Assembly (NCBI GenBank): GCA_023131895.1
Contig: JAGLYZ010000002.1
Location: forward strand, 240,474-304,473
Length of the DNA: 64,000 nt
Origin: Candidatus Parcubacteria bacterium
Lineage (GTDB): Bacteria; Patescibacteriota; Minisyncoccia; Minisyncoccales; JAGMDC01
Direction: 5' to 3'
The translations under genes were made by a program, and so were the position numbers. Positions 13,019-57,731 of the stretch are shown piece by piece. The notes below the pieces were generated by a model. The model was not told the DNA's origin, did no database searches, and saw nothing but the letters and a program-made list of their open reading frames with translations. Each line of letters opens with the position of its first letter. Positions within the stretch are counted from its first letter, which is position 1.

Positions 13019-13573
13019 CTAATAATTTGGTATTTCTATCTTAGCCAAAGCTTTAGCTGGCCAGGCTCTAAAAATTACTCTGCCTATAATATCTTCTTCT
13101 GGCAGAACGCCCCATTTTCGCGAATCAAAAGAAGCATCTCTATTATCGCCTAAAACAAAATACTCGTTTTCTCCCAAAGAAACCGTAATATTCCCTGGTG
13201 TTTGCACAAACTCAGAAAGGTACATCGATTCATTTAGTATAAATTCATAATCGTTACTTAGAATGTTTACTTTTTTATCTTCTATTTTTATTGTTTCTTC
13301 TGGCAAACCAATAATCCTTTTAATATAACGTTGAGAAGGATTGTTAGGATAATTAAAAACAATTACCTCTCCTCTTTCAGGAGCTGAAAAACGATAAGAG
13401 AGCTCATCAACAATTAAGTAATCGCCATTATGGAAATTCGGCTCCATGGATTGGCCTTTAACAAAAAACGGCTGGAATATAAAATAACGGATAGGAATTA
13501 CTATCAGCAAGGCAATAATAACGATTTTAGAAATTTCCCAGATAAATGATAATGTCCCTTTTAAGAATTTCAT
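13019..13573 (-). CDS. lepB: Signal peptidase I
   Basis: 184 aa with an N-terminal TM segment, catalytic SMEPN and GDNRDASFDSR boxes. Confidence 0.9.
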   Translation of the reverse strand: MKFLKGTLSFIWEISKIVIIALLIVIPIRYFIFQPFFVKGQSMEPNFHNGDYLIVDELSYRFSAPERGEVIVFNYPNNPSQRYIKRIIGLPEETIKIEDKKVNILSNDYEFILNESMYLSEFVQTPGNITVSLGENEYFVLGDNRDASFDSRKWGVLPEEDIIGRVIFRAWPAKALAKIEIPNY

Positions 13574-13716: not shown

Positions 13717-14283
13717 ATTCTTATAGTGGGGTTAGGCAATCCTGGAGAAAAATATAAAAGGACGCGGCATAATGTTGGATTTATGGTTTTAGATGAATTT
13801 AAAAAAATTCATAGTTTTTCTGATTGGCAATTAAAAAAGAAATTTAAAGCAGAAATTTCAGAAGGCACTTTAACAGGCAAAAAAATAATTTTAGCAAAAC
13901 CGCAAACTTTTATGAACGAGTCAGGCAAAGCAGTAAAAATCATGCAACAAGAGACAAGAGACAAGAGACAAGAACTATATGTTATTCATGACGACTTGGA
14001 TTTGGGATTAGGAAAAATGAAAATCGTTCAAAACCGCGGCTCTGCCGGACACAAAGGAGTACAGTCAATTATTAATGAGATTGGCAATAAAAACTTTATC
14101 CGTTTTAGAATTGGAATTAAAAATAAAGAACTGGAAATCCAAAATATTGAGGATTTTGTTTTAAAAAAATTTACAAAAGATGAAAAAAAAGTTATAAAAG
14201 AAACTGTGCAAAAAACCTGCAAGGCAATTGAAATGGCAATAAAACAAGGCATTGAAAAAACAATGTCAGAATTTAATAAATAA
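13714..14283 (+). CDS. pth: Peptidyl-tRNA hydrolase
   Basis: 189 aa with GLGNPGEKYKRTRHNVGF N-terminal signature. Confidence 0.92.
   Translation: MILIVGLGNPGEKYKRTRHNVGFMVLDEFKKIHSFSDWQLKKKFKAEISEGTLTGKKIILAKPQTFMNESGKAVKIMQQETRDKRQELYVIHDDLDLGLGKMKIVQNRGSAGHKGVQSIINEIGNKNFIRFRIGIKNKELEIQNIEDFVLKKFTKDEKKVIKETVQKTCKAIEMAIKQGIEKTMSEFNK
13951..13971. repeat. Tandem heptamer (GAGACAA)x3 inside pth
   Basis: A perfect 3-unit tandem repeat, in frame, encoding ETRDKRQ. Confidence 0.85.
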
Positions 14284-16912: not shown

Positions 16913-16923
16913 AATTATTTTTT

Positions 16924-17080
16924 AGACCTCTTGCAAAATAATCTTTTCTACTGCAATCCCAGAATTTTGGCTGCAAATCATTCAGAGATGCGCGCTATAC
17001 AATGTATAACCTCCTCATTCTTCATAATTTTCGCTCAAAATTTTGTGATTTCGTTACGAAAAATTATTTCGCAATAGGTC
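16924..17080 (-). mobile_element. MITE-like element, copy 1 (about 157 bp, imperfect 18-23 bp terminal inverted repeats)
   Basis: About 88% identical by manual alignment to the reverse complement of 52969-53127. Ends are AGACCT(A/C)TTGC(G/A)AAATAA. The right end supplies the sufD codons RPIAK plus stop. Confidence 0.75.
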
Positions 17081-18026
17081 TTTCTAAAAATCCATTAACA
17101 ATTAAATTAATGGCTTCTTTTTCGTTTAATCCACGCATTCTTAAATAATTTAATTCCTCTCCTGAAATTCTTCCAATTGAGGCCTCATGAGTAATTTGAG
17201 CTTTTGGGTGTTTGCAAATAAGCTCTGGTATAAGCCTTATTACAGAAGCTTTGCCTGCCCCGTAGGTCCCGCCCCTGCGGGATCCTTCGGGGTCAACTAA
17301 TAACCCCTGGCAGTCCAAATGACCTTTGCTTTCAGACTCGGCTATAACTTGAGAACGAGCAGTAATTTCGCTATCTTTATCTCCAACTAATCTTAATTTC
17401 ACTATTCCAGAAGCACCTTTTTCTTTTAGAATTAATGTCTCTTCAAATTCTGTTTTGGTTTGAGAAAATTTTCCCACAATATTCAGATTAGCAGAGGATC
17501 CTTCCAAAAGAGTAATTAATGTTTTCATCTTTAATTTTTTAGGAGGAGAAAAAACTTTATAACTATAATCTAATTTCGCCTTTTTCTCTAAGAAAAACTC
17601 ATAATTTGGCTCAACAATATCTCTTTCTCCCCAAGAGTGAATATGTCTATATTGAAGAGTTGATCCTTGTCTTAAAATAATCTTCCCTTTTGCCTGATGT
17701 ATTCCAGCTAAATTCTTTTTTAAAGCATTACAAGTTCCTTGGAGCTCTACTTTTAAATTCTTTTCTACAATTAAAAGATTCTGAAGCTCCTGCTTTATGC
17801 TTTTATTAGCAAGAGTAATACAAGTAAAAATGGGCTGTTGAGGTTGTTCTTTAACCCAAATAAAATAGCCGCTTTTTGGTTTTTTAAAAAAATATTCTTT
17901 AGTCCAGTTATATTTCTGCCAAGCCAATTCAGAAGGAAGAATCTCTATTTCTTTCAACTCACAAATTTCTGGAATTTGATTATTTATCTGATAATAATTC
18001 ACATTTTTTACATTTTTCATATCCAT
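17064..18026 (-). CDS. sufD: Fe-S cluster assembly protein SufB/SufD family
   Basis: 320 aa with C-terminal SufBD beta-helix pattern (ITHEASIGRISGEELNYLRMRGL). Overlaps the sufC 3' end. Confidence 0.75.
   Translation of the reverse strand: MDMKNVKNVNYYQINNQIPEICELKEIEILPSELAWQKYNWTKEYFFKKPKSGYFIWVKEQPQQPIFTCITLANKSIKQELQNLLIVEKNLKVELQGTCNALKKNLAGIHQAKGKIILRQGSTLQYRHIHSWGERDIVEPNYEFFLEKKAKLDYSYKVFSPPKKLKMKTLITLLEGSSANLNIVGKFSQTKTEFEETLILKEKGASGIVKLRLVGDKDSEITARSQVIAESESKGHLDCQGLLVDPEGSRRGGTYGAGKASVIRLIPELICKHPKAQITHEASIGRISGEELNYLRMRGLNEKEAINLIVNGFLERPIAK
17258..17292. repeat. GC-rich hairpin inserted in sufD
   Basis: ccccgtagg-tcccgc-ccct-gcggga-tccttcgggg, a stem of about 15 bp with one mismatch. 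In frame, encoding PEGSRRGGTYGAG. Confidence 0.8.
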
Positions 18027-26235: not shown

Positions 26236-27933
26236 CTATTTTTTCTGCACGAATTTGCAGGGATGTTTAGCAATTATTACTGAAACCTCTTTTTTGTTTA
26301 AAAAATCCTTAATTGCTTTTACAAATTCTTCCTGTTTGACCGGGTCAATTGTTTTTAAATGCTTAACTCCGCAGGCTTTAACAATATTTTCAATACTTAC
26401 TCCATCTGGTTCAGTCGGCGCGCTTGGATGCGGCTGATGGCCAGTCATAGCAGTAGTGGAATTATTCATAATAATTATTAATGGGTTTGATTTATTAAAA
26501 ACCGTGTTAATCAAACCAGTAATGCCGGAATGGAAAAAAGTTGAATCACCAATAAAAGTAATCAGTTTTTGCTCGCTTACCTTCTTAATCCCATGAGCAA
26601 TACCAATTGAAGAACCCATACAGTAAAGATAATCCTGAACATTGTGGGGAGAAAATCCTGCCAACATATAACAGCCAATATCACCGCCGAAAATTACATC
26701 CATACCTTTTGCAGCTTTTTTGACGCCTCCAAAAACCAACCAATAAGGACAGCCATGGCAAAGCTGAGGATGACGACGAGGAATTTTTCTAGCTTCGCCA
26801 GATCTGGCAGAGCCAAACAATTCCAATTTTTTATCAGTAAATTTGGCGATTGCCTGAATAACTATTTCAGGTTTCAACTCGCCGACTTCTGGTACTAAAT
26901 CTTTGCCAATAATCTTTAAATCACAATTTACTTCTTTTGCCATTCTTATTACTTCATTTTCTAAATATGGTTCTAATTCTTCTACTATTAAAACCTTATC
27001 CAAATTTTTAATAAAATTTTTAATTTTTTTCTCTGGCAAGGGATGAAAAAATCCAAGCTTTAAAACCGGCAAAGAAATATTTAATTCCTTTAATGCTTCT
27101 TTCACATAGAGATAAGAAACTCCGGAAGTAATAATTCCGAGCTTCGCAGAGACCCGACCTCCGCCAATTCTGGCGGAGGTCGGGTCTCTTCCGGCTTCTC
27201 TTCTAATTAAATTCAATTTGCTTTTCTCGCTATACTCACGTATTTTTTCAATCTTATCCAAAAGTTCCTTATGCATTTCCATAACTCGAGGCGGCATTGT
27301 TACAAATTTCTTATTGTCCTTTATAAATTTTCCATGGAGAACTGTTCTCAATGTTTTTAATTTGTCTAGTTTGACTGGAGCGCTTTGGTGCGCTACTCTT
27401 GTTGTCTCTCTAATCATTATCGGAATTTCAAATTTTTCAGATAAATCAAAAGCAAATTTAATAAAATCCTTACATTCTTGAGGGATTGACGGTTCAAGAA
27501 CAGGAATATTGGCTAAAGCCGCAAAAGCCCGGCTGTTCTCTTCTGATTGAGCCGAGCTATGGCAGGAAGGATCATCTGCTATTAAAATTACCATTCCTCC
27601 CTTAACTCCAGAATAAACCAATGGAAGTAAAAAATCAGAAGCAACATTTAAACCAAAATTTTTCATTGCCACCAAAGAGCGCAAACCAGAAAAAGAAGCG
27701 CCTCCTGCTGCTTCTATCGCGACTTTTTCATTAACAGAAAACTCAAAATATAAGCTTTTAATTTTGTCTTTAGAGTTTTGAATCTGATAAAAACTATTAC
27801 CGATCTCTGAAGCCGGCGTCCCAGGATAAGTGGAAACAAACTGAACGCCTGCTTCCAAAGCGCCTCTTACTATTGCCTCGTTTCCTAAAAGAATAACTTT
27901 TTTGTTTGGTTTCTCTAAAATATTTTCAAACAT
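26236..27933 (-). CDS. iorA: Indolepyruvate:ferredoxin oxidoreductase alpha subunit (TPP-binding)
   Basis: 565 aa with N-terminal LLGNEAIVRGALEAG...STYPGTPASE and TPP block GDIGCY. No C-terminal 2x[4Fe-4S] CxxCxxCxxxCP motifs are visible. Confidence 0.8.
   Translation of the reverse strand: MFENILEKPNKKVILLGNEAIVRGALEAGVQFVSTYPGTPASEIGNSFYQIQNSKDKIKSLYFEFSVNEKVAIEAAGGASFSGLRSLVAMKNFGLNVASDFLLPLVYSGVKGGMVILIADDPSCHSSAQSEENSRAFAALANIPVLEPSIPQECKDFIKFAFDLSEKFEIPIMIRETTRVAHQSAPVKLDKLKTLRTVLHGKFIKDNKKFVTMPPRVMEMHKELLDKIEKIREYSEKSKLNLIRREAGRDPTSARIGGGRVSAKLGIITSGVSYLYVKEALKELNISLPVLKLGFFHPLPEKKIKNFIKNLDKVLIVEELEPYLENEVIRMAKEVNCDLKIIGKDLVPEVGELKPEIVIQAIAKFTDKKLELFGSARSGEARKIPRRHPQLCHGCPYWLVFGGVKKAAKGMDVIFGGDIGCYMLAGFSPHNVQDYLYCMGSSIGIAHGIKKVSEQKLITFIGDSTFFHSGITGLINTVFNKSNPLIIIMNNSTTAMTGHQPHPSAPTEPDGVSIENIVKACGVKHLKTIDPVKQEEFVKAIKDFLNKKEVSVIIAKHPCKFVQKK
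27149..27188. repeat. Perfect 17-bp-stem GC-rich hairpin inside iorA
   Basis: gagacccgacctccgcc-aattct-ggcggaggtcgggtctc. In frame, encoding GRDPTSARIGGGRVS. Confidence 0.92.
27337..27349. repeat. GAGAAC-N-GTTCTC core inside iorA
   Basis: gagaac-t-gttctc, read in the gene as LRTVLH. Confidence 0.7.
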
Positions 27934-32929: not shown

Positions 32930-33790
32930 TTAAATTTTAAACAACTTTTTAGCGTTTGTACTGGTGATTTCAGCTATTTTCTCAAGAGGGATATTTTTAA
33001 TTTTAGCAATATGTTCGGCAATGTATTTGATAAAAATGGGTTCATTTCGGCCCGCCTTCGCTAAAGCTTTGGCGGGCAAAGGCGGAGTTAAAAAAGGACA
33101 ATCTGTTTCAATCAAAATTCTATCTAATGGCGTTTTTTTAATTATTTCATCAAGGTCTAATTTAAAAACAATTCCATTAAAACCTAAATAAAATCCCATT
33201 TCTAAAAATTTCTCTGCCTGCTCCCAAGTACCGGTAAAAGAATGGATTACCGAGGTCAGACCTTCTATAGGAGGTCTGACCTCAAGTATTTCTATTAAAT
33301 CGTCGTGAGCCATTCGGCAGTGAAAGATTACTGGCAGATTTAATTCTTCGGCTAATTTTAATTCCTGCTCAAGAAGTGCTTTTTGTTTTTCTTTAAAAAG
33401 CGCAAGCTTTTTCTTTGTTTTCGGCTTATAGTAATAATCCAATCCAATTTCGCCAATAGCCACTACTTTTTTAGATTTTGCTAATTCTTTGTATTTATTG
33501 AAATTAAAATTCTCTTCTAATATATCTTCTAAGTTTTGAGTTTTAAGTTGTGGCTTTGACTTTTGAGTTTTGACTTTTGAGTTTTGTTTAATATTAATAG
33601 GGTGAAGTCCAATCGCCGCATATACTCTTTCATTATAATCCTTTGAAATTTCAACTGCTTTTTTTGAGGTCTCATAATTTGTCCCTACATTTATCATCCA
33701 AATATTATTATCTAAACATCTCTTTATAACTTCATCTCTATCTCTGTCAAAAGCAGCAAAATTAAGATGAGCATGAGTATCTACAAGCAT
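32930..33790 (-). CDS. tatD: TatD-family metal-dependent hydrolase/DNase
   Basis: 286 aa with MLVDTHAHL, the ...ETDCPFLTP... blocks and NEP. About 30 aa longer than usual because of three repeat insertions. Confidence 0.9.
   Translation of the reverse strand: MLVDTHAHLNFAAFDRDRDEVIKRCLDNNIWMINVGTNYETSKKAVEISKDYNERVYAAIGLHPINIKQNSKVKTQKSKPQLKTQNLEDILEENFNFNKYKELAKSKKVVAIGEIGLDYYYKPKTKKKLALFKEKQKALLEQELKLAEELNLPVIFHCRMAHDDLIEILEVRPPIEGLTSVIHSFTGTWEQAEKFLEMGFYLGFNGIVFKLDLDEIIKKTPLDRILIETDCPFLTPPLPAKALAKAGRNEPIFIKYIAEHIAKIKNIPLEKIAEITSTNAKKLFKI
33049..33085. repeat. AAGCTT-centred GC-rich element inside tatD
   Basis: ggcccgccttcgctaaagctttggcgggcaaaggcgg. Its reverse complement closely matches argS 47682-47708. 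Encodes PLPAKALAKAG between the CPFLTP and RNEP motifs. Confidence 0.8.
33252..33283. repeat. Perfect 12-bp-stem hairpin inside tatD
   Basis: gaggtcagacct-tctatagg-aggtctgacctc. In frame, encoding EVRPPIEGLTSV. Confidence 0.9.
33531..33587. repeat. G/T-rich ~57-nt repeat shared with ileS
   Basis: aagttttgagttttaagttgtggctttgacttttgagttttgacttttgagttttg is about 80% identical to 44810-44866. Encodes NSKVKTQKSKPQLKTQNL. Confidence 0.85.
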
Positions 33791-33969: not shown

Positions 33970-35427
33970 TTACTTAATTCGCGGAAAAAGCGATTTGCTT
34001 TTTTTGGCTTTGATTTGTTTCAATATCTTTTCTGATGTTTCTGGTAAAAACGGCTCTAACATTTCAGCTATATTTGTTAAAGCAAATAACAACTCACTAA
34101 TTACTAATAACTGTCTCTCGGATTTCTCCCAAGGCCTTTCCTTTTCTATATATCTATCGCAATAACTAATTAACTTCCAAATTTCTTCCAATGCTTCATT
34201 AAATTTAAAATTATCTAAGGCATTTTTATATTTTTTCTCTGTATTTCTAATAGCTTTGGTTACTTTTAAATTTTGCTTGTCTCGTAGCAAGCTTGCTCTG
34301 CTTCGGGAAGTTTTTATTTTTTCTGCCATGGTCAAGACCCGAGCAGTAAGATTTCCCAGCCCTTTTGCCAAATCTGCATTATATCTTGCTTCAAATTTTT
34401 CATAAGTAAAGTCACCATCTTCAGTTGGAGAAATCTCCCTCAAAAGAAAATACCTAACAGCATCAGTCCCGTATTTTTCAACTAATACAAATGGGTCAAC
34501 AACATTTCCCAAAGATTTTGACATTTTCTGACCGCCAGATGTGATAAAACCGTGAACAAGAATAATTTTAGGTAGTTTTAGCTTTAAAGAAAGCAATATG
34601 CCAAGCCAAATTATAGCATGGAATCTGATTATATCTTTTCCAATACAATGTACATCAGCTGGCCAGAATTTTTTGAATTTTTCATTGTTCTGAGCATAGC
34701 CAAGAGCAGAAACATAATTTACAAGGGCATCGCTCCATACATAAATGGTCTGATTTTTGTCTTCTGGCACAGGAATTCCCCATTTCGAATTTTGCCTTGA
34801 GCGAGAGAAACTAATATCTTTTAACCCTTGCTTTACAAAACTTAAAATCTCATTTTTTCGGGTTTGAGGAATAATTTTAACCTTATCTTTTTCTATCGCC
34901 TTTTTTATTTTTTTTGAGTACTTTGAGAGTTTAAAAAAATAATTCTCTTCTTCAATAATCTCTGGCCTCTTTTTGTGAATAGGACATTTTCCATTCACTA
35001 AATCTTTCTTCGTAATAAAGGCTTCACAACCAATACAATAAAATCCTTTATATTTTTTCTTGCAAATATCGCCATTTTTTTTTAATTTCAGCCAAACCTT
35101 TTTTACTGTCGGCCAATGACGTTTTTGATCAGTAGTTCTGATAAAATCATCGTTAGATAAATTCAAAACATTTGTTAGGTTTCTAAACTTATCTGAAATC
35201 TCATCTGTAAATTCTTTTGGGTTCTTTCCAGCTTTTTCAGCCGCCTTTAAATTTTTTTGGCCATGTTCATCTGTTCCGGTTAAAAAGAAAGTTTCTTCAC
35301 TCAAAAACCGATGATATCTAGCAAGAACATCGGCTTGAATCAGTTCTTGAGCAAATCCTATATGCGGCAGAGCATTTGTATAGGCTAAACTACTAGTGAT
35401 ATAAAATTTTTTCTTTTTGCTTGACAT
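33970..35427 (-). CDS. metG: Methionine--tRNA ligase
   Basis: 485 aa class I aaRS with HIGF (HIGH-like), KMSKS and CxxC zinc knuckles. Confidence 0.93.
   Translation of the reverse strand: MSSKKKKFYITSSLAYTNALPHIGFAQELIQADVLARYHRFLSEETFFLTGTDEHGQKNLKAAEKAGKNPKEFTDEISDKFRNLTNVLNLSNDDFIRTTDQKRHWPTVKKVWLKLKKNGDICKKKYKGFYCIGCEAFITKKDLVNGKCPIHKKRPEIIEEENYFFKLSKYSKKIKKAIEKDKVKIIPQTRKNEILSFVKQGLKDISFSRSRQNSKWGIPVPEDKNQTIYVWSDALVNYVSALGYAQNNEKFKKFWPADVHCIGKDIIRFHAIIWLGILLSLKLKLPKIILVHGFITSGGQKMSKSLGNVVDPFVLVEKYGTDAVRYFLLREISPTEDGDFTYEKFEARYNADLAKGLGNLTARVLTMAEKIKTSRSRASLLRDKQNLKVTKAIRNTEKKYKNALDNFKFNEALEEIWKLISYCDRYIEKERPWEKSERQLLVISELLFALTNIAEMLEPFLPETSEKILKQIKAKKSKSLFPRIK
34262..34320. repeat. AAGCTT-centred in-frame element inside metG
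   Basis: acttttaaattttgcttg + core (agcaagcttgct, a perfect 12-bp palindrome) + agtttttatttt. The flanks match the argS element. Encodes KTSRSRASLLRDKQNLKV. Confidence 0.75.
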
Positions 35428-40006: not shown

Positions 40007-41380
40007 TCAAATAGCGACAGCAAATTTCTTATTTATTACCTCAACAATTTGATTAATCTTTACTCTTTCCTGCTTCATTGTGTCGCGGTCGCGGAGAGTA
40101 ACTGCGTTATCCTCCAAGGTCTCAAAGTCCACTGTAACTGCAAAAGGAACACCAATCTCATCAACTCTTCGGTACCGGCGACCTATAGAACCAACCTCAT
40201 CGTATTGGCAGGTAAAATTGGTTTTTAACAATTTATAAACTTCTTTAGCTTTTTTTACCAGCTTCTGCTTGTTTTTTACTAAAGGCAAAACTGCTGCTTT
40301 AATTGGAGCTAACCGCTTATCTAATTTCAAAACTGATTCAACTTCTTTTACTGCCTTGGTTGTTTCTGTTCTTCCGCCTTTTACTTCTGTATAAGCATCG
40401 CAAAGAAAAGCTAATAAAATCCGCTCTACTCCTACTGATGTTTCAATAATATGAGGAATGTATTTTTTGCCATTCGCTTCGTCAAAATAAGATAAATCTT
40501 CCTTACTGTGTTTCGCGTGATTGGATAAATCAAAATCACCTCTATTATGAACCCCTTCAATTTCCTTCCAGCCCGCTTCGCCGCCCGGCGAGCCGAATGG
40601 AAAATGATATTCAATATCTATTTGTCGTTTAGCATAATGAGCTCGTTCTTTTTTAGGAATTTCTACGGCTCTCAAGTTCTCTTTTTTTATCCCTAAATTT
40701 AAATACCATTTTAAGCGCTTTTCTTTCCAATAATTAAACCAATCATCTGCCTTAGATGATTCAGAGAACCACTGCATTTCCATTTGTTCAAATTCACGAA
40801 GACGAAAAATATAATTGCCAGGCGTAATTTCATTTCTGAATGCCTTGCCGATCTGGGCAATACCAAAAGGAATTTTCATTCTCATTGAATTTAAAACATT
40901 TAAAAAATTAACATAAATCCCCTGACAGGTCTCCGGCCTTAAATAAGTTTTAGCTGCTTCATTCTCAACAGGCCCTACAAATGTCTTCATCATTAGGTTA
41001 AATTTCTTTGGTTTAGTTAATTCTCCCCTGCATTCCGGACATTTTTCCCGCATACTGCGGGATTTTGTTTCTATTTCATCTAACTTAAATCGCTTATGGC
41101 ATTTTTTACATTCAACTAATTCATCAGCAAAACCAGCAGCTAAATGACCAGATGCCTGCCAAACTTTTGGCGACATTAGAATACCAGCATCTAATCCCGT
41201 AATATTATCATGGAGTTTTGTCATTTCATCCCACCAGAGATTTTTAATATTTCTTTTGAGTCCTACTCCCAAAGGTCCGAAATCATAACAGCTTGAAAAA
41301 CCGCCATAGATTTCAGAACTGGGAAAGACAAATCCCCGCCTTTTGCAAAGAGAAATAATTTTATTTATTAAATTATCCAT
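40007..41380 (-). CDS. glyQS: Glycine--tRNA ligase (dimeric GlyQS type)
   Basis: Conserved start MDNLINKIISLCKRRGFVFPSSEIYGG at 41380. The track extension to 41533 runs through a structured intergenic repeat. Confidence 0.92.
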   Translation of the reverse strand: MDNLINKIISLCKRRGFVFPSSEIYGGFSSCYDFGPLGVGLKRNIKNLWWDEMTKLHDNITGLDAGILMSPKVWQASGHLAAGFADELVECKKCHKRFKLDEIETKSRSMREKCPECRGELTKPKKFNLMMKTFVGPVENEAAKTYLRPETCQGIYVNFLNVLNSMRMKIPFGIAQIGKAFRNEITPGNYIFRLREFEQMEMQWFSESSKADDWFNYWKEKRLKWYLNLGIKKENLRAVEIPKKERAHYAKRQIDIEYHFPFGSPGGEAGWKEIEGVHNRGDFDLSNHAKHSKEDLSYFDEANGKKYIPHIIETSVGVERILLAFLCDAYTEVKGGRTETTKAVKEVESVLKLDKRLAPIKAAVLPLVKNKQKLVKKAKEVYKLLKTNFTCQYDEVGSIGRRYRRVDEIGVPFAVTVDFETLEDNAVTLRDRDTMKQERVKINQIVEVINKKFAVAI

Positions 41381-43207: not shown

Positions 43208-43960
43208 TCAGAAATTTTCCAAAACAAAAGAAAGATAATCTTCAGAAATTGTTTCTAATAACTCTTTATTTTTTTCTTCAACTTTTAACTTTGATAGAAC
43301 AGACCAATCTTTTTGCAGAAAAAGCCGTAAAATTTTTATAACATCTGGCTTTATCTCTATTAATTTAGTCAAAGAATCCTCTTTTTTAATTTCCTGAGCG
43401 CAAACATTACAAACAATTCCCCCTTGCTCTGGACTGAAGTATAATTGAAATGGTTTTAATTCTTTTCCACAAGATGAACATTTATAAAACTCTGGCTGAT
43501 ATCCTAAAGCAGAAAGAAGATTCCAAAGAAAATAGTAGTATATAATTTCTAATTTCCAATTTCCAATTTTCATTGAATTTTCAATTTTCAATTTCTCAAA
43601 AACTTCTTTCAGTAATTCCCAAATTTTCTCGTCTTTTTCTTCATCTTTAACTAATTTATCCAAGACATCGCTAATTTGAAAAGCAGTTTTTAATTTTTCT
43701 AAATCTTTTCTTATATCTGGAAAGCTATTAATCAAAATAGTATCAGTCAAGGTTTTATAAGTTTTTCCTTGAATAAATTCAATTTCTGAAAGATAAAAAA
43801 GCCCTGCTCCGCCCCTTAGCTTTGATTTAATTTTTCTAATTGCTTTTCCTAAAATCTTTAACTTTCCAAAATCCTTTGTATAAACTACAAATAATTTATC
43901 TGATTCTCCTTGAGCAATCTCTGTTATAAAAAAACTTTTTGTCCTATAATGAACAGCCAT
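43208..43960 (-). CDS. recO: DNA repair protein RecO
   Basis: 250 aa with an OB-like N-terminus and a CxxC...CxxC zinc finger (CSSCGK...CNVC). Contains an AATTTYC low-complexity insertion at 43547-43595. Confidence 0.75.
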   Translation of the reverse strand: MAVHYRTKSFFITEIAQGESDKLFVVYTKDFGKLKILGKAIRKIKSKLRGGAGLFYLSEIEFIQGKTYKTLTDTILINSFPDIRKDLEKLKTAFQISDVLDKLVKDEEKDEKIWELLKEVFEKLKIENSMKIGNWKLEIIYYYFLWNLLSALGYQPEFYKCSSCGKELKPFQLYFSPEQGGIVCNVCAQEIKKEDSLTKLIEIKPDVIKILRLFLQKDWSVLSKLKVEEKNKELLETISEDYLSFVLENF

Positions 43961-43962
43961 AA

Positions 43963-46900
43963 TTAAATTCTTCTAATTCCCAGCCAGAGTTCTTGGCCTT
44001 CTATTTTAAAAGTTTTCTCAATATCAAAAACTCTTTTTGGTCTGTCACCCTCTAAAAGGTCCTTAACTACAATCTCTTTTAAAATTGTCTTTTTATTTTT
44101 CTTTAAAATTTCACAGAGCTTTTCTTCCCCAGAATATCTAACAAACACCCGGTGTTTGGGCTTATAACCAGCTTTTTTACGCATTTCTTGAATATTTCGA
44201 ATAATCTCCCTGATTATTCCTTCTTCTCTTAACTTCGGCGTAATTTTAGTATCTAATTTAAAGGTTTTATCAAAGGTAATTTTTTTCACATTTACTTCAT
44301 CTTTAATCAATCCTAATAATTCTTTATTCCTTTTTAGCTTTTCATTTTTACTTTTTACTTCGAGCAAAGCGAGCGGCTGACGGACTTTTATTCCTGCCTT
44401 TGCTCGTTGAGCCAATCCCTTTGCTACAATTTCCCGCACTATTTTCATTTTTTCTTCTAATTTCTTATCAATTGCCTTCTTATCTGGTTTTGGCCAATCT
44501 TCTAAATGAACAGATTTATTTTTCGAAGAATTTTGGCATATTTCTTCTGAAATAAATGGAACAAACGGGGCTGTCAACTTAGCTAAGCTAAGAAGAACAA
44601 ATCCCAAAGTTTGCGACGCTTCTTGAAAATCTTTTTTTGTTTTGGGGTTCTGAAATCTCTTCCTAGATCTTCTCACATACCATAAAGATAAATCGTTGAT
44701 AACAAAATCCTCTATATCTCTGGCCGCTGAAGTAATATCGTAATTATCTATCTTTTCAGAAACCCCTGAAATTAATTCATTTAATCTGGAAATTATCCAT
44801 CTATCTAACAAGTTTTGAGCTTTGCGTTGTGGCTTTGCACTTTGAATTTTGAGCTTTGAGTTTTCTTTTGGAACATATGTTTCAAAAAAGGTATATACAT
44901 TATAGTAAGTAAGAATAAATTTCTTTAATGCCTTATCTACATCTTTTTCTGTAAATAGTTTGGAATCGCCTGGCTGATTTATAGTATAAAAATACCAGCG
45001 AGCAGCATCTGAACCATATTTTTCAATTATATGCCAGGGATCAACCACATTGCCCTTGGACTTTGACATTTTTTCTCCCTTTTCGTCTAAAACATGGCCT
45101 AAAGAAATAACATTTTTATAAGGAGTGCCAAAATCTAATAAAGTTGAGATTGCCAACATGGTATAAAACCAGCCTCTTGTTTGATCAATTGCTTCGCAAA
45201 TATAATCAGCTGGAAATTGATTTTTAAATTTTTCTTGCTCAAAAGGGTAATGATACTGGGCAAACGGCATTGCGCCAGAATCAAACCAGCAATCAATCAC
45301 TTCTGGAACTCGCTTCATTAAATTATTACATTTAGGACACTCAAATTTTACTTCATCAATATATGGTTTGTGAAAATCCAATTCTTGATTTTCTTTATTA
45401 TAAGGAAAAAGCTTAAATTCTAATCTCCTTAATTCTCCAACATCCATACTTCTATCTTGCCAGTGTTGTGTAATTTCTTGTTGAGAAAATCCTTTAACAA
45501 TACTTTCCGCCATTAAGATTGGACCGCCATGGCTAACAATTAAAATATTCTTATTTTTGTATTTTTTATCTACTTCTTTTAGAAAATCGTAGACTCGCTT
45601 TTTAACATCTGTGTAGCTTTCTCCTTTAAACGGCCTTTTGTCAAATTTATCTATTTTCCCTTCAAATAATTTACGGTACTCTTTAATATTTTTACCATCA
45701 AAAATACCAATATTTACTTCTATTAAACGTTTATCATATTTTACTTTCTTTCCAATTTCTTTTGAAATAATTTCAGCTGTTTGCTTAGTTCTTAAAAAAT
45801 CAGAAGAGAATATTAAATCTATTTTTTCTTTTTTTAACTCTTGCACTGCTTTTTTAATTTGCTCCCTGCCTTTTTTAGTCAAAGGACAGCCAGCTCCCTT
45901 ATTTTTATAAGAAAGAATATGCTTTTTGAAGCACTCTGATTCTCCATGTCTTAAAATAAAATATTTATTAGTGCTGAATTTCTGTTTTAATAAATCATCT
46001 TTGCTTCCGATAATTTCTTGATAACCGCATTTTTTACACTGCCAAATAGGCAATGGAGTTCCCCAATATCTTTCTCTGGAGATAGCCCAATCCTTTAATC
46101 CTCTCAACCATTCGCCGAACCTGCCCTGCTTTAAATGCTTAGGAACCCAGTTTATCTTTTCGTTATTTTTAATCAAATCTCTCTTAACTTTTGTCATTTT
46201 AATAAACCAACTCTTCTGGGCATAGTAGATTAAAGGCGTCTTGCATCTCCAGCAAAAAGGATAGTCATGTTCATACAGTTCTTCTTTAAAAAGCAGCTTT
46301 CTCTTTTTTAAATCTTCAATAATCAGCGGATCAGCCTTTTTTACAAACAAATTATTCCACTTATATCCTGAAGTCATCATCTTGCCCTGCTCATCTACCG
46401 TAATCAAAACAGGAAGATTGTTTTCTTTGCTAACGTTCATATCATCCTCACCAAATGCTGGCGCAATATGAACCAATCCTGTGCCATCCTCTGTTGTTAC
46501 AAAATCTCCAGCAACTATCTTATAAATGTTTGGAATTTGGAATTTATACAAGGGTTTGTATTTAAGGCCGATTAAATCTTTTCCTTTAAATTCCTCTATA
46601 ACTTCGCCTTCTATGCCAGATTCTTTTATTCTGTTTTTCGCCAAAATCAAAAATTCATTATTAACTTTTACCTTAGCATAAATAAACTTCGGGTTGACTG
46701 CTACTGCTGCATTACCAGGCAAAGTCCATGGCGTTGTAGTCCAAACAAGCAAATATGTATTTTTCTGCCCTTTGATAGAAAACTTTACATAAATTGAGTT
46801 TTCTTTGACTTTCTTGTATCCTTGCGCCACTTCATGGGAAGATAAAGATGTTCCGCATCTGGGACAGTATGGCACAACTTTATAATCCTTATATAAAAGT

Positions 46901-47391
46901 TTTTTCTGCCATATCTGTTTTAAGAGCCACCAAACGGTTTCAATATAATCGGTTTCGTAAGTAATATAAGGATTTTTCATATCCAGCCAATAACCAATTT
47001 TCTCTGTTAAATCTTCCCAGTCCTTTTTATACTGCCAGACAGATTCCTGGCATTTTTGATTAAATTTTATAATTCCAAATTTCTCAATATCTTTCTTGCT
47101 TCTTAGCCCTAATTTTTTCTCAACCTCCAATTCAACTGGCAGACCATGCGTATCCCAGCCAGATTTTCTGATTACCTTAAAGCCATTCATTGTCTTATAA
47201 CGGCAAATCATATCTTTAAATACTCTTGCTTCAAGATGATGAATACCCGGCTTGCCATTGGCAGTAGGCGGCCCTTCATAAAAAACAAAATTGGGCGCTT
47301 TTTTTCGCTGCTCAATTGATTTTTCAAAAATCCTGTTTTCTTTCCAGAATTTTATAATCTTTTTTTCTAACTTAGAAAATTCAACTAACAT
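43963..47391 (-). CDS. ileS: Isoleucine--tRNA ligase with internal extra domain
   Basis: 1142 aa with a HIGH-type motif (PGIHH), KMSKS, a CP1 editing domain and zinc knuckles. Carries a ~190-aa insertion at about aa 476-665. Confidence 0.93.
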   Translation of the reverse strand: MLVEFSKLEKKIIKFWKENRIFEKSIEQRKKAPNFVFYEGPPTANGKPGIHHLEARVFKDMICRYKTMNGFKVIRKSGWDTHGLPVELEVEKKLGLRSKKDIEKFGIIKFNQKCQESVWQYKKDWEDLTEKIGYWLDMKNPYITYETDYIETVWWLLKQIWQKKLLYKDYKVVPYCPRCGTSLSSHEVAQGYKKVKENSIYVKFSIKGQKNTYLLVWTTTPWTLPGNAAVAVNPKFIYAKVKVNNEFLILAKNRIKESGIEGEVIEEFKGKDLIGLKYKPLYKFQIPNIYKIVAGDFVTTEDGTGLVHIAPAFGEDDMNVSKENNLPVLITVDEQGKMMTSGYKWNNLFVKKADPLIIEDLKKRKLLFKEELYEHDYPFCWRCKTPLIYYAQKSWFIKMTKVKRDLIKNNEKINWVPKHLKQGRFGEWLRGLKDWAISRERYWGTPLPIWQCKKCGYQEIIGSKDDLLKQKFSTNKYFILRHGESECFKKHILSYKNKGAGCPLTKKGREQIKKAVQELKKEKIDLIFSSDFLRTKQTAEIISKEIGKKVKYDKRLIEVNIGIFDGKNIKEYRKLFEGKIDKFDKRPFKGESYTDVKKRVYDFLKEVDKKYKNKNILIVSHGGPILMAESIVKGFSQQEITQHWQDRSMDVGELRRLEFKLFPYNKENQELDFHKPYIDEVKFECPKCNNLMKRVPEVIDCWFDSGAMPFAQYHYPFEQEKFKNQFPADYICEAIDQTRGWFYTMLAISTLLDFGTPYKNVISLGHVLDEKGEKMSKSKGNVVDPWHIIEKYGSDAARWYFYTINQPGDSKLFTEKDVDKALKKFILTYYNVYTFFETYVPKENSKLKIQSAKPQRKAQNLLDRWIISRLNELISGVSEKIDNYDITSAARDIEDFVINDLSLWYVRRSRKRFQNPKTKKDFQEASQTLGFVLLSLAKLTAPFVPFISEEICQNSSKNKSVHLEDWPKPDKKAIDKKLEEKMKIVREIVAKGLAQRAKAGIKVRQPLALLEVKSKNEKLKRNKELLGLIKDEVNVKKITFDKTFKLDTKITPKLREEGIIREIIRNIQEMRKKAGYKPKHRVFVRYSGEEKLCEILKKNKKTILKEIVVKDLLEGDRPKRVFDIEKTFKIEGQELWLGIRRI
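44810..44866. repeat. G/T-rich ~57-nt repeat shared with tatD
   Basis: aagttttgagctttgcgttgtggctttgcactttgaattttgagctttgagttttc. In frame, encoding NSKLKIQSAKPQRKAQNL. Confidence 0.85.
45397..45966 (-). other. Histidine phosphatase (PGAM-like) domain embedded in IleRS
   Basis: YFILRHGES (RHG catalytic motif), SSDFLRTKQTA, IEVNIGIFDG and IVSHGG (second catalytic His). It lies between the IleRS blocks ...PIWQCKKCGYQEIIGS and DFHKPYIDEVKFECPKC. Confidence 0.7.
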
Positions 47392-47393
47392 AT

Positions 47394-48989
47394 TTACATT
47401 TTTTTTGGCGCGGAAATGCCCATTAAATCAAGAGCATTTTTTAAAACGATTTTAACCGCCTCAATTAAAGCTAAACGGCTTTGGAAAAGCGCTTTGTCTT
47501 CTGTAATAACTTTGCAATCGCGATAAAACTGATGAAAAACATTTGCTAAATCAAAAGCGTATTGAGGAATTCTCTGAACCTGATAATCTTTAGTAGTATC
47601 CTCTATAATCTCTGGAAATCTAATAAGCTGTTTAATAAGTTTTAATTCAGTTGGATGATTTAATACTTTTAAGTTTTGCTTGCCCGCCGAAGCTTTAGCG
47701 AAGGCGGGAGTTTCGTATTTTGACTTTGCGAGGATACTGTGTATCCGAGCATAGGCGTATTGTATATAATAAACCGGATTTTTCTCTGACTGTTCTCTAG
47801 CTAATGCTATGTCAAAATTCAAATGTGTATTTATAGATTTTTGCAGAAAAAAGAACCTCATTACATCAGAACCAACTTCATCAAGCAACTCATCAATAGT
47901 AAAATAAACTCCTTTTCTTTTTGACATTCTCTGTTTTTCCCCTTTTCTTAAAATAGTTACAAACTGATGTAGAATAATTTCCAGTTTATCTTTATGTCCT
48001 AAAGCTTCTATTCCAGCTTTTAGTCCTGGAATATCTCCATAATGGTCAGTTCCCCAAACATTTATCACTTTAGTAAATTTTTTCTTTTCAAATTTATATC
48101 TATGATAGGCGATATCTCCAGCTAAATATGTTTTAGAACCATCTTGTTTAACTAACACCCTATCTCTATTATCACCATACTTTGAGGATTTAAACCATAA
48201 AGCTCCATCTTTTTTATAAACCAGCTTTTTCTTTTTTAAAAACTCTATTATTTCATCAACTTTTCCTGATTTATAAAGCCGGCTTTCAAAAAACCATTCA
48301 TCATATTTAATACCCATTTTCCGAACTGTTTTTTTAATCATTTCATCTATAATAATCTTTGCTGATTTTTGTCCAGCTTTATATGGATCTTTTTCTTTTA
48401 TTTGTTTATGAAGCTTATCTATATATTCTCCCTTATAAACTGCTTCTTTATCTTTTAAAACAGAATGGCCAAGAGCTAAAATCTGTTTTCCAAAATCATT
48501 GATATAGTATGCTTTTTCTATTTTAAATCCTGATTTTTTTAAAACATTTGCTAAAACATCGCCGAACGGTCCTCCTCTGGCATTACCAATAGTTAAAGGA
48601 CCAGTAGGATTTGCTGAAATAAACTCTATTTGGATTTTTTTATTTTTACCAATATTTAAATCTCCGAATTTTTCTCTTTTCTTTAAAATTTCTTTAACTT
48701 GTTTCTGCAAATATTCTTTAGAAATAAAAAAATTGACAAACCCGGGCTTTACAATCTCAACTTTCTCTAAAAACTCTGGATCAATAATCAATAAGTGATT
48801 ATTAATAATTTTTGCTATTTCCATTGGATCTTTCTTAAGGGTTTTACTAATCTGCATAGCGATATTTGTGGAATAATCGCCATATTTTTCCTGTTCCGGA
48901 TGCTCAATAGAAAAATCAATCCTATCTATAGAAAATTTTGCTTTAAAACATGCCTTTTCAACTATATTTTTTATATCCTCTCTAATCAT
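47394..48989 (-). CDS. argS: Arginine--tRNA ligase
   Basis: 531 aa with an N-terminal Arg-tRNA-binding domain, SANPTGPL (HIGH region) and a C-terminal DALR anticodon-binding domain. Confidence 0.92.
   Translation of the reverse strand: MIREDIKNIVEKACFKAKFSIDRIDFSIEHPEQEKYGDYSTNIAMQISKTLKKDPMEIAKIINNHLLIIDPEFLEKVEIVKPGFVNFFISKEYLQKQVKEILKKREKFGDLNIGKNKKIQIEFISANPTGPLTIGNARGGPFGDVLANVLKKSGFKIEKAYYINDFGKQILALGHSVLKDKEAVYKGEYIDKLHKQIKEKDPYKAGQKSAKIIIDEMIKKTVRKMGIKYDEWFFESRLYKSGKVDEIIEFLKKKKLVYKKDGALWFKSSKYGDNRDRVLVKQDGSKTYLAGDIAYHRYKFEKKKFTKVINVWGTDHYGDIPGLKAGIEALGHKDKLEIILHQFVTILRKGEKQRMSKRKGVYFTIDELLDEVGSDVMRFFFLQKSINTHLNFDIALAREQSEKNPVYYIQYAYARIHSILAKSKYETPAFAKASAGKQNLKVLNHPTELKLIKQLIRFPEIIEDTTKDYQVQRIPQYAFDLANVFHQFYRDCKVITEDKALFQSRLALIEAVKIVLKNALDLMGISAPKKM
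47665..47722. repeat. AAGCTT-centred GC-rich in-frame element inside argS
   Basis: acttttaagttttgcttg + gcccgccgaagctttagcgaaggcggg + agtttcgtatttt. Encodes ETPAFAKASAGKQNLKV. Confidence 0.8.
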
Positions 48990-49919: not shown

Positions 49920-50319
49920 GGGAGTGTCAGGTCTCGACAGAAATTTGAGTTAAAATATGCAAGTCGAGTTTTCTCAAATCTCGCAAAACTTTGAGAAAAA
50001 AATAAGTGTCAACTTATTTTCTAAAGCTAAAACGGCTCTCGTTAACGCCATTGGCGAATATCCGAGTGTTCCGACTTTAGCTCCTGCTTACGTTTAATCG
50101 TAAGTCATCTGATTGTTGATTCTCGCTGGGCAAAATCAGGTGTTATATTTAGCGAGATACTCAGTTCTCTTGTCTCAAAGGACTGGGAAAAATATAGAGG
50201 CTAAGAATATTGAAATTTTGTTCATTTTTTATTTAGTATTCCGAAAAAACAAAATGGACTAAATTTGTAGAAATATTTTGGCAAAATTTCTGGACAGGGC
50301 TTCGATGCCCTCACTTCCA
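49920..50319 (+). ncRNA. ssrA: tmRNA (SsrA)
   Basis: Begins 4 nt after the smpB stop. 5' GGGAGTG pairs with 3' CACTTCC, and a tRNA-like T arm (agggcTTCGATgccct) plus discriminator A are present. An internal ORF at 50026-50097 ends ...TLAPAYV-stop. Confidence 0.8.
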
Positions 50320-50330
50320 CATAAAATAAT

Positions 50331-51728: not shown

Positions 51729-51767
51729 TTTTACCCCCCCTTATTCTTTTTTTAAATTACAATTTTC

Positions 51768-51849
51768 TTTTCTTTATTATAACAGACTTTAGTCTGATAT
51801 ATCAAATCTTTTCTTTATTATAACAAACTTTAGTTTGATATATCAAGTC
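51768..51849 (-). promoter_or_regulatory. Tandem duplicated (2 x 41 bp) consensus promoter with spacer palindrome
   Basis: Each unit on the minus strand reads TTGATA, an 18-nt spacer, then TATAAT. The spacer palindrome is cagac-taaa-gtctg in the proximal copy and caaac-taaa-gtttg in the distal copy. Confidence 0.65.
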
Positions 51850-52967: not shown

Positions 52968-52968
52968 A

Positions 52969-53127
52969 AGACCTATTGCGAAATAATTTTTCGTAGCGAA
53001 ATCACAAAATTTTGAGCGAAAATTGTGAAGAATGAGAAGGTTATATGTTGTATAGCCAACGAATTCTGAACAATTTGCAGCCAAAATTTTGGGATTGCAG
53101 TAGAAAAGGTTATTTTGTAAGAGGTCT
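52969..53127 (+). mobile_element. MITE-like element, copy 2 (about 159 bp)
   Basis: An inverted copy of 16924-17080. Its right end supplies the DUF72 codons RPLTK plus stop, and its left end lies 1 nt from the ATG of the MFS-like gene. Confidence 0.75.
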
Positions 53128-53865
53128 ATAACTTAAAAGTTGTTTTGCGTTTTCAACAGCATAACCCATAGTATCATTGTTGAAATACACATAAACATCC
53201 AAACCTTTTTTTCGCCATTTTTTGATTTTCTGAGCCAAATTTTCAAGTTCTTTTTTCGTATATTTCGAACTAAATAAAATTTTAGAACCATGCATTCTAA
53301 TATAAACAAAATCAGCTGTTATCTCCTCGGCTTTTGGAAAGGAAGGTGAATCACTAATAACCCATGCGCAGTTGTATTTTTTTAGTAACTTGTAAATTTT
53401 CTCATTACACCAAGTTTGATGCCGAAATTCAAAACTATACTTTAAATTTATCGAAGTCCGACTTCGTAATATTGTTAAAAACTCTTCTAATCTTTTTGTA
53501 TTCTCGTCAGTAGCTTGAAAGTTTGGAGGAAATTGGAACAAAATCGGACCAAGCTTTTCTTTGAGATTTAGGGCATTTTCTAAAAAAGTTTTCCAGGGTA
53601 TTTTTACATCCTTTAACCGTTTGATGTGGGTAATGAAACGACTTGCTTTGACACTAAATATAAAATCTTTAGGAGTTTGTTTATACCAATTCTGATAAGT
53701 AGCTGGCTTTGGTAAATGATAAAAAGAATAATTTACTTCCGCTGTCTTGAAATGCTCTGAAAAATATTTCAATTTATCTTTTCCTGATAAATCTTCAGGA
53801 TAAAAAATACCATCCCAATGAGAATAGACCCAACCCGATGTTCCGATAAAAACTTTGCCTGCCAT
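53110..53865 (-). CDS. DUF72-family protein (YecE-like)
   Basis: 251 aa with the N-terminal IGTSGWVYSHW signature of DUF72. Confidence 0.8.
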   Translation of the reverse strand: MAGKVFIGTSGWVYSHWDGIFYPEDLSGKDKLKYFSEHFKTAEVNYSFYHLPKPATYQNWYKQTPKDFIFSVKASRFITHIKRLKDVKIPWKTFLENALNLKEKLGPILFQFPPNFQATDENTKRLEEFLTILRSRTSINLKYSFEFRHQTWCNEKIYKLLKKYNCAWVISDSPSFPKAEEITADFVYIRMHGSKILFSSKYTKKELENLAQKIKKWRKKGLDVYVYFNNDTMGYAVENAKQLLSYRPLTK

Positions 53866-57684: not shown

Positions 57685-57691
57685 ATTGCGA

Positions 57692-57731
57692 GTTAAAAGT
57701 TTAAAGTTAAAAATTTAAAGTTAAAAATTCC
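57692..57731. repeat. 14-bp tandem repeat (~2.9 units)
   Basis: gttaaaagtttaaa / gttaaaaatttaaa / gttaaaaattccc, filling the spacer between two minus-strand genes. Confidence 0.8.

Follow-up and report, generated by a model that had tools for sequence, protein, structure and literature searches.

Why do unrelated housekeeping genes of a Candidatus Parcubacteria bacterium carry short, GC-rich, palindromic stretches inside their reading frames? The question is raised by a 64,000-nt stretch of DNA (assembly GCA_023131895.1, contig JAGLYZ010000002.1, positions 240,474 to 304,473; "the window" below), of about 32% G+C and with nearly all of its genes on the minus strand. Here argS (arginyl-tRNA synthetase, ArgRS) and tatD share a GC-rich core, and argS and metG (methionyl-tRNA synthetase, MetRS) share the AT-rich sequence on either side of their cores. 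A preliminary description had taken all of these for one modular family with conserved AT-rich ends and variable cores centred on AAGCTT. Its observations are partly confirmed and its interpretation is partly supported. The answer that we consider somewhat favoured is that a small, non-autonomous hairpin element, similar to repetitive extragenic palindromes (REPs) and tagged with CAAG, makes up the argS and tatD cores and is tolerated and translated in protein loops.

The unit, called family 1 here, can be written 5'-CCCGCC-TTCGCTAAAGCTWC-GGCGGG-CAAG-3'. A GC-rich stem of 6 bp encloses a 14-nt loop (TTCGCTAAAGCTNC) and is followed by CAAG as an unpaired tail; the 30 nt amount to 10 codons. The predicted fold of the 30-mer contains the 6-bp stem, a 3x3 internal loop, a further 2 bp and a tetraloop, with a minimum free energy of -12.9 to -14.7 kcal/mol. 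The window holds these copies:

47679..47708, minus strand: family-1 unit in argS, coding strand CCCGCC TTCGCTAAAGCTTC GGCGGG CAAG
33051..33080, plus strand (opposite to the gene): family-1 unit in tatD, with a 29-nt match to the argS core

As had been reported, the argS core and tatD 33051-33079 are reverse complements of one another (97% over 29 nt); no such pair is expected by chance, and shuffles ruled out a chance origin of the repeats. The argS unit lies within ...KYETPAFAKASAGKQNLKV... and is translated as PAFAKASAGK, ArgRS residues 428-437, the predicted peptide that spans the translated unit being YETPAFAKASAGKQNLK. The tatD unit, within ...TPPLPAKALAKAGRNEP..., is read as LPAKALAKAG between TDCPFLTPP and RNEP. 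All sequences quoted in the preliminary description were found where it had placed them; the parts are drawn differently here. Symmetry is not centred on AAGCTT, since in argS and tatD the hairpin is formed by CCCGCC and GGCGGG round the 14-nt loop. AAGCTT itself is incidental: it is missing from the most frequent loop variant elsewhere (GTAGCTTT) and is replaced by AAGCTC in a relative of the metG core at locus L123. Likewise, the core unit includes four bases that had been assigned to the flank, CTTG (CAAG when the coding strand is read). A logo built from 118 genome copies has sharp edges, CCCGCC TTCGCTAAAGCTWC GGCGGG CAAG(c), and unconserved flanks. Every copy collected has CAAG as its unpaired end (CTTG in the opposite strand), both scan queries having fixed part of the unit, and the one variable loop base, which takes the N position of a GNA motif when the CTTG strand is read, is T in 71 copies, A in 43, G in 3 and C in 2.

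How the unit came to be in these genes can be approached through alleles with and without it. What is shown is insertion as an exact 30-nt block, one unit nested in another, recurrent occupation of the same loops, translation and later decay. TatD homologues have two forms of the loop that joins TDCPYLTPP to RNEP, an empty one that is in the majority (TPP-PMTG-RNEP) and a filled one (TPP-LPAEALAKAG-PMTG-RNEP). At the DNA level, L123 and L122 differ by exactly 30 nt, or 10 aa, and no target duplication is visible in this pair. The same site is filled in another frame in proteins P0291 and P0358 (PAARRSFSEGG...) and by covarying stem variants (LPSEALAKEG), a pattern that speaks for more than one event. 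It is also filled in a TatD of Saccharibacteria (L030), and in further proteins it holds different GC-rich fillers. In P0257/L125, a second unit (CTTGCCCGCCGAAACTTTAGTGAAGGCGGG) is nested within the loop of the first. Compared with solved structures, the TatD site (structure 1j6o) and the ArgRS site are both insertions.

The aminoacyl-tRNA synthetase (aaRS) alignments proposed as a check in the preliminary description point the same way, with lineage-specific indels at both the argS and the metG sites; many further copies exist as well, as described below, and the outcome that was to refute the preliminary description did not occur. Within 120 ArgRS homologues, whose members closest to the window protein bear names of Minisyncoccales or Paceibacterales, the unit is intact in the window protein only. 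A decayed, AT-drifted copy stands at the same site in ArgRS P0038, and the copy in the argS of L250 has drifted toward AT; in L250 and L122 the decay after insertion is at synonymous sites. The MetRS linker of other lineages holds the unit too (P0145/P0179, KFKIPAFAKATAGKQNSK). Synteny with the close relatives L127 and L128 (78-89% protein identity) shows that most indels of at least 4 aa are such modules; where relatives are 82-89% identical, their differences are mainly of this sort, and the ileS of L128 carries a clean extra GC-rich insert of 36 nt within an array of heptamers.

Other short GC-rich segments were seen along the way. In-frame inserts reading LRQGSGQ, SFPPSLSPSESS, FAPQGYGGSAEASGEGG and PPAGG are found in L122 (P0311), the TatD of L249 and the iorA of L127, and several hairpin families recur in loci of the Candidate Phyla Radiation (CPR), for example CCTGCCTGCCGGCAGGCAGG and GCTCCGCCAGTCGGCGGAGC. 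In the window, GC-rich, hairpin-like stretches at 40561-40604 (glyS) and 17247-17297 (SufBD-like), read FPFGSPGGEAGW and DPEGSRRGGTYGAGK, look like further in-frame inserts of this kind.

Once inserted, the unit need do little harm to a reading frame. It spans exactly ten codons and four of its six reading frames have no stop codon, so that insertion in a tolerant loop merely adds ten residues (PAFAKASAGK, LPAEALAKAG or LARRSFSEGG). In low-GC contigs the unit occurs in dozens of unrelated long open reading frames (ORFs) and in four frames, giving PAFAKA[ST]AGK, LPA[EV]ALAKAG, LARRSFSEGG and, rarely, PPSLKLRRAS; frame f1 is used about five times as often as f2. Inside ORFs and read through are 49 of the 97 copies in these contigs, and only 3 units would interrupt an ORF by a stop codon, where some 24 would be expected to do so if the frame did not matter. 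This deficit argues that the unit is translated and not removed, and the same statistics rule out a spliced-out mini-intron. In the gene-dense genomes of Parcubacteria, many surviving copies are found as translated segments in hypervariable surface linkers of housekeeping enzymes. An AlphaFold2 (AF2) model of ArgRS with a mean pLDDT (predicted local distance difference test) of 89.5 assigns the unit (residues 428-437) values of 58-66, between confident helices at 405-422 and 446-456, and the metG hairpin lies between the catalytic and anticodon-binding Pfam domains of MetRS.

Could the ten-residue peptide (PAFAKASAGK / LPAEALAKAG) itself be under selection as a protein module? The good conservation of LPAEALAKAG among filled TatD alleles and the preference for f1 would fit such a role, yet genes read the unit in either orientation and in three to four frames, with unrelated peptides as the outcome, about half of the low-GC-contig copies are intergenic, as are all inspected copies at higher G+C, AF2 confidence is low at the insert, and most TatD alleles do without it. 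Peptide selection is therefore, in our estimate, extremely improbable.

The AT-rich flanks and the metG core raise a separate question, namely where the repeated unit ends. The host genes concerned, whose identities were confirmed with Pfam, are:

47394-48989, minus strand: argS
43963-47391, minus strand: ileS
33970-35427, minus strand: metG
32930-33790: tatD
13019-13573: lepB

The linker features within them are:

34276..34308, minus strand: family-2 hairpin in metG, coding strand TCCCGAAGCAGAGCAAGCTTGCTACGAGA CAAG
34262..34275, minus strand: metG 3' flank, coding strand CAAAATT TAAAAGT, read QNLKV
34309..34320, minus strand: metG 5' flank, coding strand AAAATAAAAACT, read KIKT
47665..47678, minus strand: argS 3' flank, coding strand CAAAACT TAAAAGT, two heptamers, read QNLKV
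47709..47722, minus strand: argS 5' flank, coding strand CAAAATA CGAAACT, read KYET
33520..33589, minus strand: heptamer array in tatD, about 8 units of CAAAACT, read KQNSKVKTQKSKPQLKTQNLED
44799..44868, minus strand: heptamer array in ileS, read KENSKLKIQSAKPQRKAQNLLD, just before the anticodon-binding domain

The similarity of the flanks is real. argS and metG share ACTTTTAARTTTTGCTTG exactly, at the only two sites in the window without a mismatch (allowing up to 3 mismatches raises the matches to 6, where 1.4 are expected), and the second flank matches as well (AGTTTCGTATTTT versus AGTTTTTATTTT). The cores between these flanks had been seen as one compensated family; they prove to be two different hairpin families. 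The metG hairpin, within ...KIKTSRSRASLLRDKQNLKV..., has 33 nt or 11 codons, reads SRSRASLLRDK, is partly decayed and has no counterpart in the MetRS proteins most closely related. A less decayed relative, CCCCGAAGCAGAGCAAGCTCGCTACGGGGCAGG, was found in a POR gene on another contig of Parcubacteria (L123/L124), with AT-rich repeats as its flanks and CA[AG]G as its end; the 1.7 Mb of DNA searched held no family-2 copy beyond this one relative. The metG core belongs to a second family that is built alike, as a hairpin with a CA[AG]G tail.

As for the flanks, they are heptanucleotide arrays, (CAAAACT)n, that already filled these linkers. Tandem Repeats Finder reports (AGTTTTG)x8 at 33532-33586 in tatD, with period 7, and a related array in ileS; identity between the two is 80% over 70 nt, and peaks of identity at lag 7 mark them and other linkers. 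The tatD array replaces an ancestral loop in a subclade of TatD. When the hairpins are removed, argS reads AAAATACGAAACT joined to CAAAACTTAAAAGTA and metG reads AAAATAAAAACT joined to CAAAATTTAAAAGTA, one short type of array interrupted at the identical heptamer boundary by two different hairpins. This boundary is just 5' of CAAAA, and the same junction of array and hairpin recurs in the metG of L249 and in L080. Alignments of ArgRS, MetRS and TatD show hypervariable linkers throughout the Parcubacteria; these share heptamer-derived peptides (KMKNEKLKITIKNLK, FNFQFSIFNFQ, SQIPNPK), whether or not they contain a GC core. The argS 3' flank is positionally homologous to the xKNLKLL of most Parcubacteria ArgRS.

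These arrays bear directly on the composite module of about 57 nt envisaged earlier, in which conserved AT-rich ends and a swappable, compensated GC core would move as a whole. Near-identical argS and metG flanks on both sides of different cores are what this would produce, and CAAG is followed by CAAAAYTCAAAA in the CPR copies L072, L080, L089, L096, L160 and L249. Yet the flanks are unrelated in the tatD copy and in most of some 240 other copies, comparisons of empty and filled alleles add only 30 nt, and heptamer flanks exist without any core (tatD 33520-33589, ileS 44799-44868, many ArgRS and MetRS orthologues) and gain or lose cores independently; the argS right flank, moreover, has its positional counterpart, KNLKLL, in most orthologues. 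We judge movement of the whole module to be very unlikely. What survives of the earlier proposal is a structured, inserted element with compensated stems, and its unit is the GC core plus CAAG. Its remark that translated copies end in KQNLKV or QNL likewise applies to argS and metG but not to tatD, which runs into RNEP. lepB drops out as a fourth copy: its AKALAK segment (13043-13058) aligns without length change to the C-termini of 150 homologues, with counterparts such as WPFEDFSKFE, WPFPAFAKFE and WPFRVLAKVE, and is native sequence.

The window contains further tandem arrays and palindromes. Tandem heptamer arrays stand at 43544-43595 (recO), 57691-57726, 13947-13973 and 44330-44360, among them AATTTCC x7.9 (read KIENSMKIGNWKLEI), AGTTAAA x5 and ACAAGAG x3.9; compared with L128, there is an indel at the recO array. 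A perfect 36-nt palindrome at 27151-27186, GACCCGACCTCCGCCA ATTC TGGCGGAGGTCGGGTC, read DPTSARIGGGRV, is found in an iorA/POR alpha-like gene (26236-27933), within a 13-aa insertion relative to L127; L123 has a hairpin of the metG type in the same loop. In a third hypervariable loop of TatD, a palindrome with a 14-bp stem at 33252-33283, GAGGTCAGACCTTC TATA GGAGGTCTGACCTC, is read EVRPPIEGLTS, and P0249 carries LEVQPPEGGQTSEG at its place. The half-site of this tatD palindrome resembles that in iorA (GGAGGTC), and the two may represent a third hairpin family; an origin of the iorA palindrome by inverted duplication in situ is weakened by the similar palindromes in tatD and P0249.

Returning to the 30-nt unit, how far does it extend beyond this lineage? 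The GTDB collection, with one genome per species (596 Gb), was scanned with the query GCCTTCGCNAAAGCNNNNGCGGGCAA, which has 21 fixed bases, and gave at least 120 matches against an estimated 0.3 or so expected by chance. The matches listed span Patescibacteria, Acidobacteriota, Nitrospiraceae, Bacteroidota, Alpha- and Gammaproteobacteria, Verrucomicrobiota, Omnitrophota, Planctomycetota and Gemmatimonadales, and those in Bacteroidota include an isolate, Chryseolinea serpens DSM 24574. The G+C content of the matched loci varies between 34 and 70%, and their flanks show no relation to one another. A scan of JGI metagenomes with loop and tail fixed (TTCGCTAAAGCTNCNNNNNNCAAG) and stems free found many further copies among the matches listed. 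The unit had no match in PLSDB, INPHARED and IMG/VR, where a plasmid, phage or viral vector would be sought. Rfam 15 was run at gathering score on 12 loci and the window, and the families found near copies were limited to tRNA, RNase P RNA and tmRNA; for one copy, searched at E<=10, the best sub-threshold match had E=1.3. A literature search found neither the unit sequence nor its peptides, and no CPR-specific description.

The stems of these copies vary with compensation (TCCGCC/GGCGGA, CCCTCC/GGAGGG, CCAGCC/GGCTGG, CTATCT/AGATAG and others). The test for compensatory substitutions that had been suggested earlier was carried out on 87 distinct sequences with stems free, and two-sided changes were found at all six stem pairs: there were 101 double-change cells against 37±5.5 in shuffles (0/500), and the covariation score was 0.331 against 0.117, with at most 0.14 for slid partners. 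The stem is under structural constraint.

In their genomic setting, inspected copies from outside the CPR or at higher G+C are all intergenic, often in arrays with other hairpins and with partial duplications. A tRNA gene lies within 60 nt of 19 of the 120 genome copies. Seven copies overlap the 5' end of a tRNA, the GGCGGG of the unit supplying the first bases of tRNA-Gly or tRNA-Pro, and all seven show a 5-nt direct repeat. At L018, L073, L076, L099, L105 and L121 (and L182), where the unit abuts tRNA-Gly(CCC) or tRNA-Pro, the tRNA begins with the unit's last 3-5 bases, and a second CCCGC follows the CAAG tail. At L008, a copy stands between RNase P RNA and a tRNA.

Conservation of the loop across phyla, covarying stems and enrichment beside tRNA genes and RNase P RNA are properties that a selected cis-acting signal would also have, whether a transcript stabiliser or processing site, an antisense or tRNA-operon terminator or a protein-binding site, in which case the hairpin would not be selfish DNA. 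A bias in orientation toward the locally G-rich strand (30 versus 11) and the T-rich heptamers that follow the metG and argS hairpins on the antisense strand can be added. Copies nevertheless decay at synonymous sites after insertion (L250, L122), lie in both orientations relative to host genes and tRNAs, match nothing in Rfam and occur sporadically among close orthologues, and a mechanism of insertion would still be needed. An intrinsic terminator in particular was rejected: the terminator scan flags no unit, the tail after the stem is CAAG, and the flanks are unconserved. A cis-acting role as the explanation of the repeats is accordingly rated as quite unlikely.

The stems and their surroundings also invite an explanation without any dedicated enzyme, by which hairpin replication errors (template switching, fold-back synthesis, slippage) together with gene conversion or recombination spread the unit and stems are copied locally. 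Stems do vary from copy to copy round a constant loop; the tRNA-adjacent copies use the tRNA's first 4-5 bases in an arm and have their 5-nt direct repeat; parts of the unit are tandemly duplicated or deleted in L023, L038, L118 and L181; some copies stand in place of a loop segment just as long; and the perfect palindromes at 27151-27186 and 33252-33283 occupy loops, the net change in length being small in tatD. A repeat of 5-6 nt between arm and flank, however, is present in just 6 of 119 copies. Local errors, moreover, cannot give an identical 14-nt loop in unrelated phyla, and filled TatD alleles add both arms, with no matching local template found (an adjacent CCCCGCC resembles an arm, which makes the boundary ambiguous). 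Enzyme-free spread thus seems to us unlikely.

Under the favoured reading, a mobile REP-like hairpin, the unit would spread as a single-stranded hairpin recognised by a trans-acting enzyme, as has been proposed for REPs and the HUH/tyrosine transposases known as REP-associated tyrosine transposases (RAYTs). The conserved loop and tail would be the recognition signals; the element would enter DNA, remain translated where a loop tolerates it, and its copies would then decay. The orientation bias is suggestive of a strand-specific process, although it is confounded with gene orientation.

Several observations weigh against this reading. Some copies swap out a loop segment of similar length (TatD of the window; MetRS P0145 versus P0132). 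The window contains two intact family-1 copies only, a third having been sought and not found. Logos and tests of flanks against arms reveal no consistent target-site duplication or target motif, just a signal of 1-2 nt, in that the base following CAAG tends to match the one that opens the 5' arm (C-C 38/56, T-T 31/55), and the 5-nt repeat is limited to the tRNA cases. Stems that differ between copies while the loop is constant could also mean that stems are locally templated. The loop is nearly identical across phyla, which is unusual for REPs, normally lineage-specific; its constancy is partly set by the queries, as both collection scans fixed part of the unit. No RAYT or Y1 domain was found in the 8 window proteins scanned, and no genome-wide search for such genes was made.

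Comparison with known systems helps to place the element. Tagged REPs are stem-loops of 20-40 bp with an unpaired GTAG or CGTC tag, reported in 8 phyla and sometimes inside genes, including tRNA synthetase genes, with RAYT transposases proposed as movers (PMC3733652). REPs and REPINs are thought to be mobilised by these tyrosine/HUH transposases (PMC3733652, PMC3116915). Like them, the unit is a short GC-rich stem-loop (30 nt, 6-bp stem) with an unpaired tag at one end, found singly or in arrays with other hairpins in intergenic DNA and occasionally within genes, without terminal inverted repeats beyond the hairpin and without a clear target duplication. Unlike them, its tag is CAAG/CTTG and not GTAG or CGTC (GTAG is present solely within the loop, in the W=A variant), conservation lies in its large 14-nt loop, with compensated variation in the stem, that loop is common to many phyla whereas REP families are usually lineage-specific, and many of its CPR copies are intragenic and translated.

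Rickettsia palindromic elements (RPEs) reportedly stand in frame in protein-coding genes of a reduced, AT-rich genome, as described by Ogata et al. in 2000. They are about 100-150 bp long, are confined to Rickettsia and relatives, occur in coding and non-coding DNA and add surface peptide segments. Our unit resembles them in entering functional genes in frame (TatD with its 10 added codons; the 49 units read through) and is set apart from them by description, being several times shorter at 30 nt and cross-phylum. RPEs are mentioned in PMC3733652 and PMC10969869.

Transposable elements of the miniature inverted-repeat kind (MITEs) can also be inserted in frame, an example being the QMITEs of Coxiella (PMC5896051; review PMC10969869). 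They are likewise non-autonomous repeats able to extend or alter ORFs, but MITEs have 70-300 bp, terminal inverted repeats and target-site duplications, and the unit has neither of the latter two. Single-strand transposition of the IS200/IS605 type, with the Y1 HUH transposase TnpA (PMC6006769), offers parallels in hairpin recognition (which we infer for the unit), the lack of target duplication, a short sequence at the foot of the hairpin and a possible strand bias. Those elements, in contrast, have two different subterminal hairpins, carry genes and insert 3' of a fixed tetra- or pentanucleotide; logos and flank tests found no such fixed target for the unit. Finally, DNA mini-hairpins d(GCGNAGC) with GNA triloops are known (PMC13037366, PMC3201870), and the CTTG-strand loop has two CGNAG motifs, CC-GWA-GC and GC-GAA-GG, a resemblance by sequence alone. 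Of the kinds already described, the tagged REP comes closest, and in function the unit behaves like in-frame RPEs. As far as the searches went, the 30-nt element is apparently undescribed.

Other features of the window deserve a brief record. A histidine-phosphatase domain (His_Phos_1) is embedded in IleRS residues 478-642, encoded by ileS (43963-47391), and is present in the L128 relative too; L250 has a stand-alone 188-aa His_Phos_1 gene between argS and ileS. For the tmRNA gene at 49920-50320, ARAGORN predicts a long and unusual tag, VNLFSKAKTALVNAIGEYPSVPTLAPAYV. In intergenic DNA near rpmI/rplT, a 41-nt unit is tandemly duplicated at 51766-51847 (93% identical). An inverted intergenic pair, 16922-17082 and 52968-53128, has members of about 165 nt each that are about 92% identical, with MITE-like terminal inverted repeats as ends, TAGACCTCTTGC...GCAATAGGTCTT.

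A bolder reading, possible in our view and rather doubtful, is that the 30-nt unit represents an unrecognised, pan-bacterial class of minimal mobile DNA, made of one hairpin with a constant 14-nt loop and a CAAG tag and with a stem that is free or target-templated. It would be moved by a widespread candidate single-strand DNA enzyme and would be a source of ten-residue insertions in loops of essential CPR proteins, aminoacyl-tRNA synthetases included. The same loop and CAAG tag are found in CPR, Acidobacteriota, Bacteroidota and Proteobacteria and not in the plasmid, phage and viral collections searched. Loop and tag shared across phyla, together with covarying stems, point to a conserved recognition partner, and such a partner would make the movement and persistence of minimal palindromic repeats directly testable.

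For the CPR/Patescibacteria, the unit would account for much of the puzzling variation in length, and of the odd low-complexity or GC-rich peptides, seen in housekeeping proteins, inserted segments that complicate both annotation and alignment. In practical terms it marks recent indels and tolerant loops, and it can be regarded as a natural, large-scale experiment of in-frame loop insertion on essential enzymes.

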